A DNA stretch of 30,087 bases, taken from positions 1 to 30,087 of the forward strand of contig JBMNQS010000021.1 in assembly GCA_050944255.1 (NCBI GenBank), in the 5' to 3' direction. This stretch comes from Christensenellales bacterium. GTDB lineage: Bacteria; Bacillota; Clostridia; Christensenellales; Maliibacteriaceae. The translations under genes and the position numbers were made by a program. Below the pieces are notes generated by a model. That model saw only the letters and a list, made by a program, of their open reading frames with translations. It searched no databases and was not told the DNA's origin. Numbering within the stretch: the stretch's first letter is position 1; each line of letters opens with the position of its first letter. Below are positions 17,044 to 29,027 of the stretch, one piece after another.

Positions 17044-17207
17044 TGTTACGTCTTTTTATGCCGAGGATTGCCGGAAAATGTTAAATTTGTATTGATTTTT
17101 TATAGATGATTGCACTATCGAAACGAATGTAATAAAATATAATTTGTGGATTCTGCCGCATTAGATGGTTTTTGAGATTTGGGCCACAGATCGCACAAAG
17201 GAGTGTT

Positions 17208-19781
17208 ATGCAGATCGTTCTCGCACCCCATGGCGGATTTTGCTTCGGCGTTAAACGGGCGCTCAAATTGGCCGAAGATGAAATCGGCGGCGGGCCCGTA
17301 TATACCCTCGGCCCCATCATACATAACCGCCAGGTGGTGGAATACCTGAGTGAGAAGGGCGTAGGCGTCATCGAAAGCGCCGGCGAGGCCCAAAAAGGCG
17401 ATAAAGTCGTTATCCGCTCCCATGGCGTATCCCCCAAAACCATCCGGGCCTTGGAAGAGAAGGGCGCCCATATCATCGACGCCACCTGTCCCTTCGTTTC
17501 CAGAATCCACCAGAAGGTAAAAGAGGCCGCGCAAGAGGGCAGGCAGGTCATCATCGTCGGAAAGGCCGATCATCCGGAAGTCATAGGCATCGGCGGCTGG
17601 GCGGATGAGGACGCCATCGTGGTGTCCAGTCCCGAGCAGGCCGATACGCTGGGGTACTTTGATAAGGCGCTTGTGGTGGCGCAGACAACCATTATCCAGA
17701 AGCTGTTCGACGAGGTGCTCGAAACGCTCAGACCGCATATCCGGGATATAGAAGTGTTTTGCAGTATCTGCCAGACATCGGCGCAGCGCCAGATGGAGGC
17801 CACCGAAATTGCCAAAACATGCGATGCGGTCGTCATTATCGGAGGCAGGCATAGCGCCAATACCAGTCATTTGTATCATATTTGCAGCGAGGTATGCCCA
17901 AACTGTATAATGATAGAGACAGCTAAAGAGCTGCGAGAAAAAGCGTTTTCCGGCGCGAGGCGCGTCGGGATCATTGCCGGAGCGTCCACTCCGGAATGGA
18001 TAATTGAGGAGGTCACTACGAACATGAGCGAACTGGAAAACACCCCCGTACTTGCCGGCGAAGAAGAAAACATCGCCCCGGCCGCTGCGGAAGAAGCGGC
18101 CCAATCTGCCGTAGAGGAGGCTCCCGCCCAGGAGCAGGCCGCCCAGGCGGAGGCAGTGCAAGAACAGCCCCAAGCAGCGCAGGATGCTGACGCAGGTCAT
18201 ATGCCCGAGGATGCGCCCGCCCAGGAAACGGCTCAAGAGCCCTCTCCCGCGGCAGACGACGCCGACGCAGGCCATATGCCCGATGCGGATGCGCAGGCTG
18301 CAAGCGAATCTTCGGAAGAGGAAGCCGAAGCCAATTTTATGGAGGATTTCGAGAAGACCCTTGTGCAGATTCGCAATGGCCAGGTGATTTCCGGTACAAT
18401 CGTTCACGTTAATGACTCGGAAGTGTGCGTCAACATCGGTTATAAATCCGACGGCTTTGTCTCCAAGGCCGAGTTCTCCGCCGACGGCAGCGTCAATCCC
18501 GCCGAAGTGGTCAAACCCGGCGACAAAATCGAAGTCGAAGTGCTGAAAGTCAACGACGGCGACGGCAACGTGATGCTGTCCAAAAAGAGCGTCGACGGCA
18601 AAAGGCACTGGCGCGACGCGGTGGCCGCCTTCGAAGAGGGCAGAAACATCGTGGCGGAGGTCAAGGAAGTGGTCAAGGGCGGTATCGTGGCCGATGCCAG
18701 CAGCATCCGCACGTTTATCCCCGCCTCCCAGCTGGCCCTTGGCTACATAGAGGATATGAGCGGCTTCGTGGGCCAGAGCCTCGAACTGAAAATCATCGAG
18801 CTGGACCGCAGTAAGCGCCGTATCGTGGCCTCCAGAAAAGCCGTTCTCCAAGAGGAGAGCGAGCAAAAGAAAAAGGAAGTCTGGGATAACCTGGAAGAAG
18901 GCCAGAAGATCACGGGCGTCGTGCAGCGCCTGACCAACTTCGGCGCCTTCGTGGATATCGGCGGCGTGGACGGCCTGATCCATATCACCGATCTTTCGTG
19001 GGGCCGCGTGCGCCACCCCTCGGATGTGGTCAAGCCCGGCGAGCAGGTGGAAGTATCGGTCCTGAATCTGGACCGCGAGCGCGAGCGCATCTCCCTGGGA
19101 TACAAGCAGACGCAGCCCCAGCCCTGGGACAACGCCAAAGAGCGCTATCCGGTGGATGCCGTCGTCAAGGGCAAGGTGGTCCGCATCGTCAGCTTCGGCG
19201 CCTTCGTGGAGCTTGAATCCGGCCTTGACGGCCTTGTGCATATCTCCAACATCGCCAACCGCCGTATCGAAAAGGTGGAGGACGTGCTTAAAGTCGGCGA
19301 TGAGGTGGATGTGATGGTGCTGGAAGTCAATCCCGACGCCAAGCGCATCAGTCTCTCCATACGCGCCACGCTGCCACGGGAAGAGCGGGAAGAGCGCGAG
19401 GAAGTGCCCAGACAACCCCGTGACCGCGATGAGCAGCCCAGGCGTGAGCGCAATGCGTCGGCCTACGAGCGGGCCTCTCAGCTTCGTCAGGGCGGCGGCC
19501 AGCGCAGAGAGCGCCAGCCGCGCTCAAATGAGCCCACCAGCTATTCCGAGGATTCCAGCGTGACGCTGGGCGATCTGATGCCCGGACTGCGCGAGCTGTT
19601 CGGCAATGCGCAGGAGGTCGAAGAGACGGTGCCGGCCGCAGCGGAAACGGAAGTCGCCACCGACGCCGCGCCGGAAGTGGCCGAGGAAGTGGCGGAAATC
19701 CTTGAAAACGACGGTGAAACCGTAGGCGAAATCACCGCCGAGGATATCGAAAAGACGGCTGAAGCCGACAAAGAAGAATAA
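17208..19781 (+). CDS. ispH: Bifunctional 4-hydroxy-3-methylbut-2-enyl diphosphate reductase (IspH/LytB) fused to ribosomal protein S1 (four S1 domains)
   Basis: N-terminal MQIVLAPHGGFCFGVKRAL...ATCPFV...HSANT is IspH. An acidic Ala/Glu/Gln linker follows at about 18050-18340. Four S1 OB-fold repeats follow (GQVISGTIVHV, GRNIVAEVKEV, GQKITGVVQRLTNFGAFVDI, AVVKGKVVRIVSFGAFVEL). The C-terminal tail is Arg/Glu-rich and acidic. AAAGGAG RBS precedes the ATG at 17208. Confidence 0.92.
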   Translation: MQIVLAPHGGFCFGVKRALKLAEDEIGGGPVYTLGPIIHNRQVVEYLSEKGVGVIESAGEAQKGDKVVIRSHGVSPKTIRALEEKGAHIIDATCPFVSRIHQKVKEAAQEGRQVIIVGKADHPEVIGIGGWADEDAIVVSSPEQADTLGYFDKALVVAQTTIIQKLFDEVLETLRPHIRDIEVFCSICQTSAQRQMEATEIAKTCDAVVIIGGRHSANTSHLYHICSEVCPNCIMIETAKELREKAFSGARRVGIIAGASTPEWIIEEVTTNMSELENTPVLAGEEENIAPAAAEEAAQSAVEEAPAQEQAAQAEAVQEQPQAAQDADAGHMPEDAPAQETAQEPSPAADDADAGHMPDADAQAASESSEEEAEANFMEDFEKTLVQIRNGQVISGTIVHVNDSEVCVNIGYKSDGFVSKAEFSADGSVNPAEVVKPGDKIEVEVLKVNDGDGNVMLSKKSVDGKRHWRDAVAAFEEGRNIVAEVKEVVKGGIVADASSIRTFIPASQLALGYIEDMSGFVGQSLELKIIELDRSKRRIVASRKAVLQEESEQKKKEVWDNLEEGQKITGVVQRLTNFGAFVDIGGVDGLIHITDLSWGRVRHPSDVVKPGEQVEVSVLNLDRERERISLGYKQTQPQPWDNAKERYPVDAVVKGKVVRIVSFGAFVELESGLDGLVHISNIANRRIEKVEDVLKVGDEVDVMVLEVNPDAKRISLSIRATLPREEREEREEVPRQPRDRDEQPRRERNASAYERASQLRQGGGQRRERQPRSNEPTSYSEDSSVTLGDLMPGLRELFGNAQEVEETVPAAAETEVATDAAPEVAEEVAEILENDGETVGEITAEDIEKTAEADKEE

Positions 19782-20241: not shown

Positions 20242-20318
20242 CGGGGTGTGGCGCAGTCTGGTAGCGTACGTGCTTTGGGAGCATGGGGCCGGGGGTTCAA
20301 ATCCCTTCACCCCGACCA
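20242..20318 (+). tRNA. tRNA-Pro (anticodon TGG)
   Basis: Manual cloverleaf: acceptor cggggtg/caccccg, anticodon loop tttggga, T-loop ttcaaat, encoded CCA. Confidence 0.85.
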
Positions 20319-20431
20319 GTCCGGATGGCCGGACGGCCAAATGCGCATCGGCCACGGTGCGCGATACGGCTTCTCCGCCGCCCTTGGGCATCAGCGCCGT
20401 ATCACAACGCATACCCTTCATCGCAGTTCGT

Positions 20432-20506
20432 GGCCCCGTGGTCAAGCGGTCAAGACACCGCCCTTTCACGGCGGTAACAGGGGTTCGATTCCCCTCGGGG
20501 TCACCA
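20432..20506 (+). tRNA. tRNA-Glu (anticodon TTC)
   Basis: Acceptor ggccccg/cggggtc, Glu-type D-arm gtcaagcggtcaagac, anticodon loop ctttcac, T-loop ttcgatt, encoded CCA. Confidence 0.85.
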
Positions 20507-20511
20507 TTTTT

Positions 20512-20587
20512 GGGCCTTTAGCTCAGTGGTTAGAGCGACCGGCTCATAACCGGTTGGTCCGGGGTTCAAATCCCTGAAGGCCCACCA
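20512..20587 (+). tRNA. tRNA with CAT anticodon, more like tRNA-Ile2 (lysidine-modified) than Met/fMet
   Basis: gggcctttagctcagtggttagagc...ctcataa...ggttcaaatcc...ggcccacca. The 5' half and anticodon arm resemble Bacillus tRNA-Ile(CAT) as I recall it. Identity cannot be proven from sequence alone. Confidence 0.8.
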
Positions 20588-20593
20588 TTTTCT

Positions 20594-20671
20594 GGCCCGG
20601 TAGCTCAGTTTGGTTAGAGCGCTAGCCTGTCACGCTAGAGGCCGAGGGTTCGAGCCCCTTCCGGGTCGCCA
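20594..20671 (+). tRNA. tRNA-Asp (anticodon GTC)
   Basis: Acceptor ggcccgg/ccgggtc, anticodon loop ctgtcac, T-loop ttcgagc, encoded CCA. Confidence 0.85.
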
Positions 20672-20678
20672 TTTTTTT

Positions 20679-20754
20679 GCCTCGGTAGCTCAGTCGGTAG
20701 AGCAAGGGACTGAAAATCCCTGTGTCGGTGGTTCGATTCCACTCTGAGGCACCA
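20679..20754 (+). tRNA. tRNA-Phe (anticodon GAA)
   Basis: gcctcggtagctcagtcggtagagc, anticodon loop ctgaaaa, T-loop ttcgatt, encoded CCA. Confidence 0.88.
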
Positions 20755-20759
20755 GTTAA

Positions 20760-20835
20760 GCTGGTGTAGCTCAACTGGCAGAGCAGCTGATTTGTAATCA
20801 GCAGGTTGCGGGTTCAAGTCCCATCACCAGCTCCA
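20760..20835 (+). tRNA. tRNA-Thr (anticodon TGT)
   Basis: gctggtgtagctcaactggcagagc, anticodon loop tttgtaa, T-loop ttcaagt, encoded CCA. Confidence 0.85.
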
Positions 20836-22089: not shown

Positions 22090-22107
22090 ATATTTGGAGT
22101 GTGTGCC

Positions 22108-23439
22108 ATGGAATTGATGGATAAGCTGACCGTGCTTGCCGACAGCGCCAAATACGACGCGGCGTGCACGTCCTCGGGCGTGGACCGGCCCGGCCGTAGG
22201 GGCGCGCTTGGCTCCGCCGTGGCGCCGGGATGCTGCCATAGCTTTTCCGCGGACGGCAGGTGCATCTCGCTTTTGAAAGTGCTGATGACCAATCATTGCA
22301 TCTACGACTGCAAGTACTGCGTGAACCGTCGTTCCAATGACGTGCGGCGCACGGCCTTCACGCCCAGGGAACTGGCCGATCTGACGATCCAGTTTTACCG
22401 GCGCAACTACATCGAGGGGCTCTTTTTGTCCAGCGGCGTGGCCGGGAGCCCGGACCATACGATGCAGCAGATGATCGATGCGCTGGAACTGCTGCGTGAC
22501 GGGTACGGTTTCCAGGGGTATATCCACGCCAAGACGATACCGGGCGCCTCTGCGGAATTGGTGTACCGGCTGGGGCTCCTGGCGGACCGGCTGAGCGTGA
22601 ACATAGAACTGCCCAGCGAGCAGAGCCTGAGGCTTCTGGCGCCCAATAAGACGAAGCGGGCGATCCTGGAGCCCATGCGGCAGATTGCCGACGGGCTGCA
22701 GCAAAGCGGCCGGGAGATGGTCCTGTATAAGCACGCGCCGCGCTTTGCCGCCGCCGGCCAGGCCACGCAGATGATCATCGGGGCCACGCCGGAAACCGAT
22801 TATAAGATACTGAAGCTGGCTGCCGGTCTCTACGACCGCTACGCTTTGAAGCGGGTGTTTTACTCGGCGTATATTCCCGTGGTGGAGGATTCGCTTCTGC
22901 CGGCGCTTCAGGCGCCGCCGCCGCTGCTTCGGGAGCACAGGCTGTATCAGGCGGATTTCCTGATGCGGCAGTATGCGTTTACGGCCGATGAGATACTCTG
23001 CGAAGAGGTGCCCAATTTCAACCCGTATATGGACCCTAAATGCAACTGGGCCATCCATAATATGGAGCGCTTTCCCGTGGATGTGAACCGGGCCCCTTTG
23101 AACGAGCTGCTGCGGGTGCCCGGCATCGGCCCCAGGAGCGCCAGAAGGATTATCGCGGCCCGGCGCACCGGCGCCCTGGGCATGACGGAGTTGAAAAAGA
23201 TCGGCGTGGTGCTCAAGCGCGCCCAGTACTTCATACTGACGAGGGACCGTCCGGCGGGCCTTCGGATGAACAGGCAGACCGCGGCGCGGGCACTGATGGA
23301 CCCGGCGAGCTTTTCCTACGGGTTGGAGCAACTGACGCTATTCACCGATACGGGACTTGCGCTGCCTGGCCCGGGGGACGTCAAATCCATTGAAGCGGCG
23401 AAAAAGGAGGCGGTATTATCAGTGGCGCAAAACCTTTAG
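22108..23439 (+). CDS. Putative DNA modification/repair radical SAM protein (TIGR03916-like) with C-terminal helix-hairpin-helix
   Basis: CxxxCxxC cluster CIYDCKYC after an N-terminal Cys-rich stretch. HhH motif LLRVPGIGPRSARRIIAAR. GGAG lies 8 nt upstream of the ATG at 22108. It is paired with a DUF4130 gene. Confidence 0.85.
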   Translation: MELMDKLTVLADSAKYDAACTSSGVDRPGRRGALGSAVAPGCCHSFSADGRCISLLKVLMTNHCIYDCKYCVNRRSNDVRRTAFTPRELADLTIQFYRRNYIEGLFLSSGVAGSPDHTMQQMIDALELLRDGYGFQGYIHAKTIPGASAELVYRLGLLADRLSVNIELPSEQSLRLLAPNKTKRAILEPMRQIADGLQQSGREMVLYKHAPRFAAAGQATQMIIGATPETDYKILKLAAGLYDRYALKRVFYSAYIPVVEDSLLPALQAPPPLLREHRLYQADFLMRQYAFTADEILCEEVPNFNPYMDPKCNWAIHNMERFPVDVNRAPLNELLRVPGIGPRSARRIIAARRTGALGMTELKKIGVVLKRAQYFILTRDRPAGLRMNRQTAARALMDPASFSYGLEQLTLFTDTGLALPGPGDVKSIEAAKKEAVLSVAQNL

Positions 23440-24191
23440 CGGCGCCGTCATCCGGCGAATACATCTACGACGGCAGCCTCAGCGGCTTTTATTGCTGCGT
23501 ATACCGGTGCGTTTACTCGGGACTGATGCCCGCCAGCATCGTGCCCGAAAGCCGCTGCCAGCCCGCTTTCTTTGCCCAGATGCGCATCGAAACGGACGAA
23601 AAGAGGGCCGGACGGGTACGCGATTCCATCTATGCCCGGATATCCCCTGCGGCGCTGGACCTTGTAGAGACGGTGTTTTTCAGCTGTATGCCCGACAAGG
23701 AGGCGGCGATGCTCCGCTTTCTCCTGAAGGCGTACCGACAGGGGCCCAAAGTGATGGATATGCTGGGCGATCCGGCGGTGGCGCCGCTTTTAAAGGCGGA
23801 AAAGCACCTTCTGGGAGAGCGGCAGCTGCTGCTGGGCTTCATACGCTTTTCGGACTATGACGGCAACCTGGCCGCCGCCATATCCCCGAAGAACTTTGTG
23901 CTGCCGTTTCTGGCGGATCACTTTATCCGCAGGTATTCCGGAGAGAACTTCATGATCTTCGACAAGGTGCACAAGGCGGCGCTGATCTACCAGGGCGGAC
24001 GGGCCGGCATCATTTCGGTGGAGCATATCGAGTTTCCAGAGGCCTCCGTCGCGGAACGGCAGTACCGCACGCTGTGGAAACGGTTCTACGACACCATCGG
24101 CATAGAGGCCCGATACAACCCCAAATGCCGCATGACCCATATGCCAAAACGCTACTGGGAGAACATGCTGGAGGTGAAGGACCTGCTTTAA
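23415..24191 (+). CDS. TIGR03915/DUF4130 family putative DNA metabolism protein (start codon uncertain, see findings)
   Basis: The frame is open from 23394. The family-typical N-terminus YIYDGSLSGFYCCVY is encoded at 23460-23504, upstream of the first ATG (23526). AAGGAGG at 23404-23410 is followed by an in-frame ATT (23415) and ATC (23418). C-terminal NPKCRMTHMPKRYWENM is typical of the family. Confidence 0.75.
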   Translation: MISGAKPLAAPSSGEYIYDGSLSGFYCCVYRCVYSGLMPASIVPESRCQPAFFAQMRIETDEKRAGRVRDSIYARISPAALDLVETVFFSCMPDKEAAMLRFLLKAYRQGPKVMDMLGDPAVAPLLKAEKHLLGERQLLLGFIRFSDYDGNLAAAISPKNFVLPFLADHFIRRYSGENFMIFDKVHKAALIYQGGRAGIISVEHIEFPEASVAERQYRTLWKRFYDTIGIEARYNPKCRMTHMPKRYWENMLEVKDLL

Positions 24192-25136: not shown

Positions 25137-25169
25137 AAAAAGCCGCCGGGCTGGGTCCCGGCGGTTTTT
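25137..25169. terminator. Bidirectional rho-independent terminator between the convergent amidase and AAA+ genes
   Basis: aaaaa, then gccgccggg (25142-25150), then cccggcgg (25157-25164), then ttttt. Confidence 0.75.
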
Positions 25170-25207: not shown

Positions 25208-27589
25208 TCAGCCCTTGTAGTCGCTGCGCCGGTAGACGCGCAGGCCCACCCGGCTCATCAGCGCGATGGTGTCCCGTCCGGCGTCCTTGAATAACTGCTT
25301 GCCGCCTTCGGGCAGTTCGTCCCATTCCAGCAGATAGGGGGACGTCTTTTGCTCGACGCTGAAATCGGGTCCGTGTTTCCAGCCGTCGTCTTCCAGGCGG
25401 CCTTTCCACGCGGCGTGATGGGCTTTGCCCAGCTCCAGAATTTCGTAGGTCGTGAAGGAATCCACCGTCGGATAGCGGGTTTCGCCGGCGTCGTAGTAGC
25501 AGCCGATGCTCCTGAGGCACTCGCCCATCTGCGCCGCCTGCCCGATGAGCTGATGCTGCTGGGCCGGCGTAAGATTCTCCCATGGGGAAGGCGGCGCCTG
25601 GGCCAGCGGGCTGTCGTCCTGGCAGGCCTTTTCGTGCAGGACCCTGGCCAGGGGCATGGTGTAGCTTGAAAGGGACACGTCGCGAAGCACAAGGCGCATG
25701 AACGCCTCGGCGTTCACATGCAGGTTCAGTTGATCGAAAGAGGGGAGATCCGCCGCGTTCCAGCGCTTGCGCTCCCCGATACGGCTCATGTCCAAAATGG
25801 CCTGCATGCTCCTGGCGCCGTGACGGTATTCGGGTACCAGAAGCATGGCCCGAAGGACGTTTTCGTCGATGAAGGCGCCGTAGGCGTCCGCATCGTCCAG
25901 ACCGAAGCGGCGCTCCAGCATCGTGCACAGAAGCAGCGCCCGGCGCAGGATGTAATTCTGGTCCTGGGCGTCTCTGGGATTGGGGCCCAGAACATTGATG
26001 GTGCCTCGCAGGCGGCTGACAAAATCCGGGCCCTTTACGTCCTGGAAGGCCTTTTTCTGCTTCCAGTGATCCGAGCGCATGGGCAGAGTGAAATTCTCAA
26101 AGCTGACGGCGGTGGCCCCCGCGAACACGAAAATACAGTTGCCGATGGGATGCACCTGTGTGCCGTCCTTGAATACGCCGTCCTGCATGGGCATCAGAAA
26201 GCTCTTGAGCCAGCCCAGGTCGCGGCCGTCCTTGTCCGAATCGAACTCGTCGAAAAAGACCAGAGGCAATTTGCCCATCAGCGCCACGTCGCGAATCCGG
26301 TGGAAGGCATAGGTCAAGTCCTGATCCGAAGTGAACTGGGAGACGTTAAAGGCGATGTCCTGCACCACGCCGGGCAATAGATGCGTGGCGATGCGTGTGA
26401 CGCCGAATGTCTTGCCGCTGCCCGGCGCGCCGAATACGGCGATGGACAGGGGCTTTGTGGACTTGCTGGAGGCGTAGTGCAGGATCAGGTTCTTGATGTT
26501 CTGATACGCCTCGATCTCGCTGCGGTCAATGGTCACCAGGCTTCCCAGCTGCAGCCTGGGCAGGCCGCGCAGGTAATTGAAGCCGTAAAATACGGTGTTG
26601 AACGCCAGCGCCGCCGGCGTCTGGTCGTGGAAGCCGTCTGTGATGCACCAGTAGTTCGGATCGGAGCCCTCGGTGGGATCGGTGTCCGGCACCGAAAAGG
26701 TGCGCACCTTCATCTGGGCGATGAGGCTGTCGTTGAAGGTGATGCCCTGCCGCATCAGCTCGGGCAGGTAACCCACTCGAAGCAGCGACAGCGCCGCACG
26801 CATAATGATGTCGGCGGAAAGTTTCGCTTCGCCCTCCAGCACGCAGGCGAACTGCAGCGCCGTCTGGTAGACGATCATGGGCCAGGTGTCCGGAAGGAGC
26901 CCCACCGCCTGGTCCCGGGCGGTGCCCTCGGCGTTGCCGCTGGCCAGAATGATGCAGGCCTTGAGGCTGCCCGCCTCATTGCGGATATACACCGCCGCCT
27001 CCTCGGCGCAGGGGATCAGTATGTGCCCGGACAAGAGAAGATGCGACAGGTCATGATTGCTCCTGAACTGCCAGAGAAGATCGGTGGCGGTGCGCTCCCA
27101 GGAGATGCCCCGGGAGATCATGGCGCCGCTGCTTCGAAGAAGATCCGCGTCAACCAGAAGAAAACAGCGCCCGGACAGGGCCTTCATCTGATCGGACGAG
27201 GGAAGCCTCTTGTTGCTGGCCCACAGGACCAGGCCCGATTCGGGAACCTCGATATCGTCCCAGCCTTCGTCCCAGACCACGGCGGCATCCGCATCCTCGC
27301 AGGTGATGGTCATGGGATCGAAATCGCTGTAGCCGATGTGCCGGCTGACCAGGAAACGATCCTTCACCTCGTCCTTGGCCGGAGGATAGATGTTCAGCTC
27401 CATATATTCGGTTTTGCACTCATCGGGCAGCATATAGCGCTGCGAATCTTTATCGAGCATGGCGCCGATCTGCGCCGCGCCCGATCGAAGCGTGAACTGA
27501 TGGTATATATCTTCTCCGGAAGAGGGCCTCTCCCCATAGAAAAACGTTCGTTTCCAGCTGTGGCCGGCCACCGCCAGCGATTGACTCAT
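25208..27589 (-). CDS. 793-aa multidomain protein: unassigned N-terminal domain of about 380 aa, AAA+ ATPase, helical linker, C-terminal RyR (ryanodine-receptor repeat) domain
   Basis: Walker A GAPGSGKT (26408-26431). Walker B LVFFDEFD (26240-26263). Sensor-1-like FVFAGAT, SRLRG Arg-finger region, YRHGARS sensor-2-like. RyR-like HAAWKGRLEDDGWKHGPDFSVEQKTSPYLLEWDELPEGGKQLFKDAGRD (about 25229-25444). RBS GGAGGAAAGG. Confidence 0.85.
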   Translation of the reverse strand: MSQSLAVAGHSWKRTFFYGERPSSGEDIYHQFTLRSGAAQIGAMLDKDSQRYMLPDECKTEYMELNIYPPAKDEVKDRFLVSRHIGYSDFDPMTITCEDADAAVVWDEGWDDIEVPESGLVLWASNKRLPSSDQMKALSGRCFLLVDADLLRSSGAMISRGISWERTATDLLWQFRSNHDLSHLLLSGHILIPCAEEAAVYIRNEAGSLKACIILASGNAEGTARDQAVGLLPDTWPMIVYQTALQFACVLEGEAKLSADIIMRAALSLLRVGYLPELMRQGITFNDSLIAQMKVRTFSVPDTDPTEGSDPNYWCITDGFHDQTPAALAFNTVFYGFNYLRGLPRLQLGSLVTIDRSEIEAYQNIKNLILHYASSKSTKPLSIAVFGAPGSGKTFGVTRIATHLLPGVVQDIAFNVSQFTSDQDLTYAFHRIRDVALMGKLPLVFFDEFDSDKDGRDLGWLKSFLMPMQDGVFKDGTQVHPIGNCIFVFAGATAVSFENFTLPMRSDHWKQKKAFQDVKGPDFVSRLRGTINVLGPNPRDAQDQNYILRRALLLCTMLERRFGLDDADAYGAFIDENVLRAMLLVPEYRHGARSMQAILDMSRIGERKRWNAADLPSFDQLNLHVNAEAFMRLVLRDVSLSSYTMPLARVLHEKACQDDSPLAQAPPSPWENLTPAQQHQLIGQAAQMGECLRSIGCYYDAGETRYPTVDSFTTYEILELGKAHHAAWKGRLEDDGWKHGPDFSVEQKTSPYLLEWDELPEGGKQLFKDAGRDTIALMSRVGLRVYRRSDYKG

Positions 27590-27649
27590 AACCTTTCCTC
27601 CTATAGGATGATAAGAGATGGTGATGGAAATTCATGCCATCACAACTCA

Positions 27650-27678: not shown

Positions 27679-27795
27679 GCGAGCCGTTATCGGATATTGT
27701 GTGTCGAAACCGTGCATCTTAACGCAGAAAATCGACCGCTTACCGGCAAAGAACCTACCTGTAAGCCAAATCAGGTATCGCGCCGGCTGCAAGGC

Positions 27796-27804
27796 TGATA
27801 TAAT
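27796..27804 (+). promoter_or_regulatory. Extended -10 element TGATATAAT upstream of the second LytTR gene
   Basis: tgatataat at 27796-27804, 26 nt upstream of the GTG at 27830. The -35 is weak. Confidence 0.45.
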
Positions 27805-27829
27805 GCCACCAGGGAAAGGAGGGAAGCTC

Positions 27830-28294
27830 GTGAAGATAAAAATAGAGGTCACGGACGATCTTGCCGAGGACGAAATCACCATCCGCTGCAAAACGGTGGA
27901 CGAAAATATCATGCGGCTGCACGACGCCATCCGCCAGCAGGCGCAAATGAGCCGCAAAATCGTCTTCTACAAGCAGAACCTGGAATGCTATTTTCCCATC
28001 GACGAGGTGCTCTTCTTCGAGACGGATGCGCAGCGGGTGTTCGCCCACACCGTGAGCGACAGCTATCGCATACGCCTTCGCCTCTATGAGCTGGAGGAAA
28101 TGCTCCCCAAACAGTTTGTGCGGGCGGCAAAGTCCACCATCGTCAATACGTCCAAAATTTTTGCCATCACAAGCGACCTGACCGCCTCCAGATTGATACG
28201 GTTTTCCGGCACGCACAAACAGGTGTACGTGTCAAGACACTACTACAGGGCCCTCAGGGACCGGCTGACTGAAAGGAGCACTCATAATGAATAA
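27830..28294 (+). CDS. LytTR-family DNA-binding protein without a receiver domain, 154 aa
   Basis: IVFYKQNLECYFPIDEVLFFETDAQRVFAHTVSDSYRIRLRLYELEEMLPKQFVRAAKSTIVNTSKI...YVSRHYYRALRDRL is the LytTR pattern. The GTG at 27830 lies 7 nt after GGAGG (27818-27822). Confidence 0.85.
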   Translation: MKIKIEVTDDLAEDEITIRCKTVDENIMRLHDAIRQQAQMSRKIVFYKQNLECYFPIDEVLFFETDAQRVFAHTVSDSYRIRLRLYELEEMLPKQFVRAAKSTIVNTSKIFAITSDLTASRLIRFSGTHKQVYVSRHYYRALRDRLTERSTHNE

Positions 28295-29027
28295 CAAAAA
28301 TTGGTTTTGGGGCGTGTACCTGATACTGGCGGCGGCGCTTTTGATTGCCTCGCAGTTCGTATCCTTTGCCGCCATCGGCTTTTGGAGCATCGTGGCCACC
28401 ATATTGCTGGTCGCCATGATCATCCAGAGCCTCATCCGCAGGCATTACCCGTTCGTGCTTGTGCCTGCGGCCATACTCTACGTGATTTACCAAAAACCCC
28501 TTGGCCTGGCCTACGTTTCGCCCTGGATGCTCATCACGGCGGCGGTGCTGGCCGCCATCGGCCTTTCGCTGATCTTCAGAAAGCATCCGGAGCACTTCTT
28601 CTGCTCGCATACCAAAGGGCATAGCCACGGAGCCTGCGAACATTACGCCGTCAGCGAAGCGGGCGAAAGCCAGGGCAATCAGGACGACAACAACCCTTAT
28701 GCAAAGGTGCGTTTCGGCTCGGTGAGCCGCTACCTTCATTCCACAAACCTGACCGCGGGCCACTTTGCCGTCAGCTTTGGCGCCATCGAAGTCTTTATGG
28801 AGGAAGCCCAGATCGATCCCGCCGGCGCGCAGATTTTCCTGGAGTGCAGCTTCGGCGCCATCACACTGTATGTCCCCAAGCACTGGAATGTGGTGGACCG
28901 CACCAACAAGGCCTTCGGCGGCGTGGAGATCGATACGAGGATACACCGCCCGGCCGAAGGCGCGGCGCCCACGCTGGTGCTGACCGGCAACGTCAACTTT
29001 GGCGGCGTGGAGGTCCGGTACGTCTGA
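28287..29027 (+). CDS. LiaF-like membrane protein (N-terminal TM segments + C-terminal LiaF/DUF2154-type beta-rich domain)
   Basis: Three to four TM helices come first. The repetitive pattern FGAIEVFM...FLECSFGAITLYVP...AFGGVEID...LTGNVNFGGVEVRYV is typical of the LiaF C-terminal domain. The start ATG overlaps the LytTR stop (ATAATGA). Confidence 0.7.
   Translation: MNNKNWFWGVYLILAAALLIASQFVSFAAIGFWSIVATILLVAMIIQSLIRRHYPFVLVPAAILYVIYQKPLGLAYVSPWMLITAAVLAAIGLSLIFRKHPEHFFCSHTKGHSHGACEHYAVSEAGESQGNQDDNNPYAKVRFGSVSRYLHSTNLTAGHFAVSFGAIEVFMEEAQIDPAGAQIFLECSFGAITLYVPKHWNVVDRTNKAFGGVEIDTRIHRPAEGAAPTLVLTGNVNFGGVEVRYV

Follow-up and report, generated by a model that had tools for sequence, protein, structure and literature searches.

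A solitary AAA+–RyR ATPase gene of a Christensenellales bacterium and the possible ties of its family to TIR-based signalling

Thoeris systems (types I–XI) consist of a TIR-domain signal generator, ThsB, and an effector with a signal-binding domain. Proteins of the SLATT type and SLOG-like proteins serve as effector and sensor modules of Thoeris or of cyclic oligonucleotide-based anti-phage signalling systems (CBASS). Here we analyse a gene whose product joins an AAA+ ATPase to a ryanodine receptor-type (RyR) domain. It lies on a stretch of 30,087 nucleotides from a Christensenellales bacterium (assembly GCA_050944255.1, contig JBMNQS010000021.1), which we call the window. The coding sequence is complete, occupies positions 25208..27589 of the minus strand, starts with ATG and specifies 793 amino acids, with a ribokinase-like region, an AAA+ module and a tandem RyR region that resembles the Repeat12 (R12) domain of animal ryanodine receptors. 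Our favoured reading, held tentatively and with somewhat less than even confidence, is that the gene is a solitary, derived member of a large uncharacterised family, and that this family provides receptors or effectors of TIR-based (Thoeris-like) nucleotide signalling. The fused AAA+–RyR family would be new, and the kind of system to which it appears analogous, TIR and nucleotide-signal conflict systems, is known.

RyDEP and other stand-alone RyR proteins (PF02026; among them a 'putative ryanodine receptor' of B. thetaiotaomicron, PDB 3NRT/6UAG) share with the window protein the RyR fold and the motif H-x2-W ... [H]P ... LPE..K..D. Phage RyR-domain proteins are anti-Thoeris factors, and the R12 domains of phage RyDEP bind or cleave the TIR-made signals 2'/3' cyclic ADP-ribose (2'/3'cADPR; PMC13232231). 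Binding is of nanomolar affinity and involves H75 (catalytic, and a ribose contact), W78 (adenine stacking), H100 (phosphates) and D117 (the catalytic acid); the preprint, which deals with viral proteins only, states that animal R12 domains conserve all of them (PMC13232231). The statement in the earlier note on this DNA, that no function has been established for RyR domains, is therefore outdated, the more so as solved R12 structures of RyR3 carry ATP or ADP. RyDEP-type proteins are single repeats of about 100 amino acids that homodimerise and serve viral anti-defence, whereas the window protein carries two repeats in cis within a 793-residue cellular ATPase and lacks equivalents of H100 and D117, with S750 and F767 in their places.

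The family resembles Thoeris in that 13 of 80 loci have a TIR gene, its product bearing a conserved Glu, within or adjoining the operon of the relative, and in that SLATT and SLOG-like genes co-occur. It differs in that the loci of relatives are often multi-gene, with several candidate effectors, and in that the window copy has no TIR gene; nor does the Thoeris literature searched describe an effector with a RyR, AAA+ ATPase or ribokinase-like domain. In its text and the supplements searched, a survey of 29 predicted Thoeris effector types (10.64898/2025.12.03.692087) contains no RyR, PF02026 or ATPase term. The architecture was likewise undescribed in the literature searched on RyR with AAA in bacteria, RyR with SLATT or SLOG, ryanodine receptor with anti-phage, DefensePredictor and Thoeris. 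With PADLOC and NCBIfam also lacking it, the earlier suggestion that no described system has this architecture stands.

A widespread family with recurrent partner genes

When 1.84 billion representatives, in clusters at 50% identity, were searched exhaustively with HMMER, 3,900 representative clusters matched the window protein at E ≤ 1e-3, at least 1,896 of them at E ≤ 1e-30, so that the protein is not the orphan it had been taken for. Species genomes (185,579 in total) contain 444 matching stretches, and the phyla represented are Bacillota, Bacteroidota, Actinomycetota, Chloroflexota, Deltaproteobacteria, Planctomycetota and Patescibacteria, together with methanogenic archaea. The distribution is patchy, as had been anticipated, horizontally scattered and cross-domain. 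Even the nearest relative (P0002) is only 49% identical to the window protein. Searches with the whole protein (tblastn) found no relative in 50,697 phage records, and stand-alone RyR genes occur in 276 phage records; plasmid-borne relatives number three in 72,556 plasmids. The fused AAA+–RyR architecture is cellular, not viral. Some stand-alone RyR genes of Pseudomonas phages (records H23 and H56–H63) are annotated 'Anti-CRISPR protein' or 'alanyl-tRNA synthetase' and are probably misannotated RyDEP-like genes. On plasmid pA of Methylobacterium sp. FF17 (L082, 1–9566), the relative adjoins a SIR2-family protein of more than 2,000 amino acids and a transposase.

Gene neighbourhoods were compared at the 80 best genome loci, a sample biased to the best-scoring relatives. 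Open reading frames (ORFs) were called by a simple longest-ORF rule, neighbours were clustered and recurrent clusters were annotated. No partner gene is universal across these loci. At 31 of them, genes for TIR proteins, extra RyR proteins, SLOG-like or SLATT proteins, DUF4062-NACHT proteins or a 495-amino-acid protein with a helix-turn-helix (HTH) motif lie nearby, almost always on the same strand. The TIR partners (15 genes in 13 loci) are separated from the family gene by gaps of 0–24 nt at L003, L007, L009 and L014, and their proteins have an invariant Glu, the candidate catalytic residue by comparison with TIR motifs. The 13 extra RyR genes include one for a 96-amino-acid stand-alone RyR protein (120 bits) and one for a transmembrane–TrkA_N–RyR protein, and near-identical small RyR genes are found directly upstream of some relatives. 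Further partners are a SLOG-like protein together with a DUF4231/SLATT membrane protein, DUF4062-NACHT proteins with or without WD40 repeats, and the 495-amino-acid HTH-containing protein.

This linkage is positional. All TIR and extra RyR genes fall at offsets −2 to +4, and none is found among 483 genes further out (Fisher p of 8e-5 for TIR and 3e-4 for RyR, phylogeny being ignored). Among 150 immediate neighbours the top Pfam families are RyR (9) and TIR_2 (6). In P0002, the gene overlaps by 4 nt a downstream gene for a SLOG-like/DUF4231 (SLATT-type) membrane protein, and the two are predicted to be translationally coupled. DprA/Smf is the sole match behind the SLOG-like label of partner clusters c6 and c16 (three sequences, E 0.006–0.08), and calling these proteins SLOG-like is a guess. 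Since partner genes occur at 31 of 80 loci, including that of the nearest relative, and almost always on the same strand, the family looks like an undescribed Thoeris-like receptor or effector. The conflict or signalling role suggested in the earlier note is thus backed at family level, by the loci with TIR, RyR, SLATT or NACHT genes nearby, but not by the window copy, which is without partners. Its comparison with single-gene systems suits the partnerless copies only and fails for P0002, given the coupled membrane-protein gene.

At the P0002 locus, genes for a serine recombinase (Recombinase/Zn_ribbon_recom/DUF4368) and a KAP-family NTPase lie 4–6 kb downstream of the gene pair (L086:14785-18436), a hint that this copy may sit in a mobile element or a defence island. 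In a Methanobacteriaceae metagenome-assembled genome (MAG), two tandem paralogues are found with a TIR gene and a NACHT-WD40 gene nearby (L046:10001-14166); the second paralogue, of 660 amino acids, has a degenerate Walker B motif, Arg finger and sensor-2 and carries a TIR domain.

TIR_2 and NUDIX domains are NAD/ADP-ribose-handling modules, and both are also found fused to members of the family: P0238 has a C-terminal TIR_2 domain (amino acids 1070–1175), and a NUDIX domain occurs in one member of alignment A4. Proteins at L008, L019, L030 and L036, and also P0008, begin with an extra and highly conserved RyR repeat (first ~95 amino acids, E 1e-39 to 1e-45). This repeat replaces the first ~90 residues, so that at the four loci the stand-alone RyR neighbour has in effect been fused to the family protein. 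Members from Defluviitaleaceae/Clostridiales MAGs (L026–L034 and L039) are 635–723 amino acids long, end after the AAA+ lid and have no RyR region, and all copies of this RyR-less subgroup are partnerless. Partnerless too is the whole Clostridium-type clade of ~860-amino-acid proteins. Solitary copies, at 49 of the 80 loci, have unrelated metabolic or regulatory genes as neighbours.

Three modules in one polypeptide

The three-module architecture described in the earlier note is real. AlphaFold2, given 44 homologues, produced a full-length model with a predicted local distance difference test score (pLDDT) of 87.1 and a predicted template modelling score (pTM) of 0.82. In a Foldseek search with this model, the best matches in the PDB were complete tandem Repeat12 domains (6uhi, 9l9b, 6uhe). 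The ~190 aligned columns span both repeats (probability 1.0, E 3e-5 to 1e-3), at template modelling (TM) scores of 0.5–0.6 normalised to the target and a sequence identity of only 12–18%. The ligands in the matched structures, which include the solved RyR3 R12, are ATP, ADP, AMP-PCP or dantrolene, and the three nucleotides sit in the pocket between the repeats. Animal R12 is thus the best structural match to the C-terminus of the window protein, for both repeats; there it is a peripheral regulatory module of a Ca2+ channel of 5,000 amino acids, whereas in the window protein it is joined to a soluble AAA+ ATPase.

The first repeat (amino acids ~644–700; 25490..25660, minus strand) is degenerate in the window copy and was placed by the fold search and by alignment with a tandem-RyR neighbour protein, which matches amino acids ~647–778 of the window protein at E 2.8e-7. 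H652 is kept, and the family residues Y/F655, E675, N681 and R682 are replaced by A, P, L and I; in some relatives the repeat is detectable by hidden Markov model (HMM), for example in L018 at E 2.7e-5. The second repeat (amino acids 715–787; 25229..25447, minus strand) includes an RyR-like stretch at 725–773 and is matched by Pfam RyR at amino acids 720–785, by solved RyR repeats in the PDB (E 3.7e-12 to ~3e-5) and by an HMM of the stand-alone RyR neighbours (E 6e-8). The PF02026 score of the window protein, 27.0 bits (E 5.5e-6), misses the gathering score of 27.4 by 0.4 bits. The profile finds 42 of 48 wider relatives at E ≤ 0.01, the best at E 1.8e-36, and the other lines of evidence indicate that the match is real despite the missed threshold. 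A C-terminal RyR domain had correctly been noticed from the sequence, but it is a tandem of amino acids ~644–787 and not the last ~75 residues alone.

The AAA+ module (amino acids ~360–640; 25670..26512, minus strand) contains all five motifs recognised before, at 387–394 (GAPGSGKT), 443–450 (LVFFDEFD), 487–493 (FVFAGAT), 525–529 (SRLRG) and 588–594 (YRHGARS). These supply the Walker A lysine (K393), the Walker B residues D447/E448, sensor-1 T493, the Arg finger R526 and sensor-2 R593, which are conserved in 79 of 80 homologues and all six of which are kept in the window copy. Fold matches to ClpB, FtsH, ClpC/ClpC1, ClpX, p97 and LuxO (probability 0.7–1.0) support an alpha-beta-alpha nucleotide-binding core with a C-terminal helical lid. 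The Pfam AAA profile (PF00004) scores 19.8 bits on the window protein, below its gathering score of 21.2, and matches 43 of the 48 wider relatives at E ≤ 0.01. In common with the classical and HCLR-clade AAA+ proteins (ClpB, ClpC, ClpX, FtsH, p97), the module has the core and lid fold, Walker A and B, a sensor-1 Thr, an Arg finger and a GAR-type sensor-2. Unlike them, the window protein has no protease or substrate-adaptor domain, and the canonical aromatic pore-loop motif of classical AAA+ proteins was not identified in it. Membership of the STAND NTPases was rejected: matches to nSTAND/AAA_16 are weak and below threshold, and the GAR sensor-2 motif and the lid, both typical of AAA+, argue against it.

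The N-terminal domain (amino acids 1–345; 26555..27589, minus strand) appears to have a divergent ribokinase/PfkB-like fold. A model of these residues alone reached a pLDDT of 92.9. Searched against the PDB, its top 11 matches were all kinases of the ribokinase superfamily, including ribokinase, nucleoside kinase, pseudouridine kinase and pyridoxal kinase (E 7e-4 to 1.4e-2, probability 0.75–1.0), at TM scores of only 0.27–0.44, a root-mean-square deviation of 7.5–12 Å and 7–11% identity. Viral structures gave no match (best E 0.35). Pfam has no match to residues 1–360, PfkB is matched neither in the window protein nor in the 48 wider relatives, and the PfkB signature motifs (a GG dipeptide, NxxE, DTxGAGD) were not found in the domain. 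Sequence profiles of the N-domain, from the close family (A3) and the wider family (A7), found no kinase in the PDB, and a profile of the ATPase module (A5) found no AAA+ match there; both assignments accordingly rest on fold and motifs, and because neither sequence nor family profiles detect a kinase, we speak of a divergent ribokinase-like fold rather than of a kinase. A search for homologous proteins with the N-domain profile retrieved a single fragment of 273 amino acids, which we attribute to the word index and from which we draw no conclusion. The family-invariant residues of the domain (R152, G155, S159, S163-W164-E165, E221) differ, as regards R152, the SWE at 163–165 and E221, from the PfkB signature. 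The window copy keeps these three elements and departs from the family at P35/G36. The view that the first ~380 residues carry no assignable motif holds for sequence motifs, while for residues 1–345 a fold can be assigned.

Ligand contacts and setting of the window copy

The four RyDEP contacts H75, W78, H100 and D117 correspond, by motif spacing rather than structural superposition, to positions 725, 728, 750 and 767 of the window protein. Among 44 aligned close homologues, the window copy included, these positions hold H in 44, W in 37, H in 29 and D in 42. The R12 domain of the window protein is homologous to domains that bind cADPR isomers, with two of its contacts replaced: H725 and W728 are kept, S750 stands for the His of the family and F767 for the Asp. 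The state of position 767 follows the presence of partners. Asp is found in 31 of 31 partnered copies, as against 7 of 41 solo copies, where I, V or L is the usual residue (p 6e-14 for all copies and p 0.03 for the close clade alone, both computed without regard to phylogeny). The His/Asp dyad of RyDEP (H75/D117), equivalent to H725/D767, is complete in all 31 partnered relatives and without its Asp in the window copy. Solo copies retain the adenine-contacting H725/W728 yet lose the ribose-contacting Asp.

Beyond these contacts, the window copy departs from its relatives at 13 of the 34 RyR positions on which at least 85% of them agree, including D767F, N681L, R682I and E675P, which is the most among the 44 aligned homologues. 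With two of four ligand contacts lost, by S750 and F767, a pattern shared with further copies that lack partners, it is a derived member and not the best representative of a putative system. Judging by these residues, it probably no longer reads a TIR signal.

The gene itself is real. Its coordinates, strand and length agree with the ORF listing; its protein is 100% identical to P0001, recorded from a Christensenellales MAG; and the identical protein is recorded in three independent samples with the same neighbours each time. A strong Shine-Dalgarno sequence (AGGAGG, 27597..27602, minus strand), read directly from the sequence, lies 7 nt 5' of the ATG, as had been noted, and so does the reported bidirectional intrinsic terminator hold up, a hairpin with an 8-bp all-GC stem at 25143..25164 that a terminator scan detects on both strands. 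Bordered by an A-run and a T-run, the hairpin can terminate both the AAA+–RyR gene and the convergent Amidase_3 gene. The promoter-like element claimed for the gene was not recovered: a consensus scan found no sigma-70-like promoter upstream on the minus strand.

Its neighbours are genes for a nitroreductase, a radical-SAM/DUF4130 pair, Amidase_3, LytTR/LiaF-TM, a thioesterase and a GNAT protein, and they recur in none of the homologous loci examined. A functional tie to the adjoining LytTR/LiaF-TM or Amidase_3 genes was rejected, as these neighbours are seen in no homologous locus. The envelope-stress regulators and tRNA cluster that had been read as meaningful context are likewise conserved in no relative. 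The cluster has six tRNA genes (Pro, Glu, Met, Asp, Phe, Thr; 20242-20835, plus strand); the AAA+–RyR gene is 4.4 kb downstream of it, a placement not conserved in relatives. A radical-SAM protein with a helix-hairpin-helix motif (22099-23439, plus strand) is followed by the DUF4130 protein (23526-24191, plus strand), a pair that resembles a recurrent pair usually annotated as putative DNA modification or repair. One ORF of 869 amino acids (17172-19781, plus strand) is an IspH/LytB protein fused to four S1 RNA-binding domains. The LytTR DNA-binding gene (27701-28294, plus strand) overlaps the LiaF-TM membrane protein gene (28287-29027, plus strand) by 8 nt, and gene callers place its start later (154–163 amino acids) than the longest ORF of 197 amino acids does.

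Alternative explanations and meaning

From the observed architecture, family relationships, linkage and residue patterns we infer a ligand, a gating step, an N-domain that acts as effector and, if there is one, a function against phages, connected as follows. A signal derived from ADP-ribose would come from the adjacent TIR protein, and the R12 domain would bind it as the R12 domain of phage RyDEP does. Binding might gate assembly of the AAA+ ring or its ATP turnover, and the ring could in turn act on the N-terminal ribokinase-like domain, the output, by driving or exposing it. The SLATT membrane protein, NACHT-WD40 proteins and small RyR proteins may act in parallel as effectors or buffers. 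In the window copy, the motor and the output domain would be kept and the ligand pocket re-lined. With H725/W728, the ATPase motifs and the N-domain invariants retained and F767 and S750 in the pocket, its sequence suggests that it is probably an active ATPase that does not read a TIR signal. Most likely it answers to another adenine ligand, perhaps ATP or ADP, or to no ligand at all; a signal made elsewhere in the genome may also be what it reads.

Several observations weigh against the receptor/effector reading. The window copy has no TIR or other partner gene within the 30-kb window or up to the end of the 43.6-kb contig. With 49 of 80 loci partnerless, a TIR-independent function may even be the commoner state of the family. 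PADLOC-DB v2 and NCBIfam have no significant match to the window protein (best IetA at E 0.065 and IteA at E 0.25), and PADLOC matches among the 150 neighbours are scattered and single (Fic/PDC-S04, PD-T4-6, mads, WYL), counted without a background control. The silence of the Thoeris survey fits novelty, but also a gene that is not enriched in defence islands. The correspondence of RyDEP contacts depends on motif spacing, and the linkage and D767 statistics take no account of phylogeny, the association of D767 with partners falling to p 0.03 within the close clade. Low TM scores, the lack of sequence support and the missing PfkB motifs qualify the modelled ribokinase-like fold and make an enzymatic effector role of the N-domain speculative.

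One alternative lies outside immunity, and we regard it as unlikely overall and as plausible for the solo clade. Here the protein would be an AAA+ remodeller under the control of nucleotides or of the energy state, whose R12 domain, like animal Repeat12, binds ordinary ATP, ADP or AMP and tunes an ATPase acting on a substrate held by the ribokinase-like domain, and the link to TIR genes would be a secondary recruitment. The solitary 49 loci, the ~860-amino-acid Clostridium-type clade and the window copy agree with this, as do the ATP, ADP or AMP-PCP carried by solved RyR3 R12 structures, the solo copies that hold the adenine pair H725/W728 and lose the ribose-contacting Asp, and the lack of a PADLOC match for the window protein. 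The spread of the family across domains is, on the other hand, very patchy (the 444 stretches in 185,579 species genomes), which argues against a housekeeping role. The tight positional linkage to TIR, RyR, SLATT and NACHT genes in the clade closest to the window protein and the TIR and NUDIX fusions inside the family also count against it.

The strict H725/D767 dyad of the 31 partnered copies, which maps to H75/D117 of RyDEP, raises a further alternative that we consider quite unlikely, namely that these proteins terminate or recycle host signals. An R12 domain of the Asp type would then be a RyDEP-like glycosidase that linearises 2'/3'cADPR, resetting TIR signalling or preventing autoimmunity, the ribokinase-like domain would process ADP-ribose or ribose, and the window copy would at most be a binder. 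Ribokinase-family enzymes act on ribose and nucleosides, and one member is fused to a NUDIX domain, of the ADPR pyrophosphatase type. RyDEP cooperates with NAD-salvage enzymes (PMC13232231). Of eight phage RyDEP homologues assayed, however, six bound the signals and none cleaved them, despite high sequence conservation (PMC13232231), so that retention of the dyad does not predict catalysis. A signal-clearing enzyme also has no obvious need of a conserved AAA+ motor, and the N-domain is without any PfkB catalytic motif.

For the window copy alone, its 13 altered RyR positions of 34, the altered P35/G36 of the N-domain and the lack of partner genes could mean that it is a decaying remnant, drifting without selected function after the loss of its operon partners; no remnants of partner genes of any class were found in the window by tblastn, nor any as far as the contig end. 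We judge this very unlikely. Its 793-codon ORF is intact, with a strong ribosome-binding site and a terminator, the six ATPase motif residues and R152, E165 and E221 of the N-domain are kept, and the sequence is identical in three independent samples. A hydrophobic residue at 767 is moreover the norm of the large solo clade, and thus looks like a functional state rather than damage.

That the gene is a mobile-element anti-defence factor, sponging or degrading host TIR signals as phage RyDEP does, is highly improbable: phage RyR-domain proteins do act against Thoeris (PMC13232231), three relatives are plasmid-borne and a serine recombinase gene lies 4–6 kb from the nearest relative, but the absence of the family from the 50,697 phage genomes, with only three matches in 72,556 plasmids, makes the role unlikely, relatives are themselves operonic with TIR genes, and the surroundings in the window are those of a chromosome (IspH-S1 fusion, tRNAs, cytidylate kinase) and lack genes of mobile elements.

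We return to the receptor/effector reading and to a broader proposal that builds on it, which we consider possible but rather doubtful. Bacteria and archaea would have a class of TIR-dependent immune systems, so far undescribed, whose signals are received by RyR (R12) domains and whose effector is a ligand-gated AAA+ motor with a ribokinase-like output, acting alongside small RyR, RyR-channel-like, SLATT and NACHT modules. The relationship between R12 and cADPR that is debated for animal ryanodine receptors would then stem from a prokaryotic immune sensor, and the partnerless copies would be a retuned, TIR-independent offshoot. The window gene itself, as a diverged and solitary member, is of smaller practical value. 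If the receptor/effector reading of the family is right, RyR/R12 would be a new receptor module for TIR-based immune signalling, an AAA+ motor with a ribokinase-like domain would be a new kind of effector in such signalling, and the RyR sponges and glycosidases of phages would be explained as mimics of a host receptor. The contrast between Asp at position 767 in partnered copies and a hydrophobic residue in solitary ones offers a natural experiment on how the ligand specificity of R12 domains is set.

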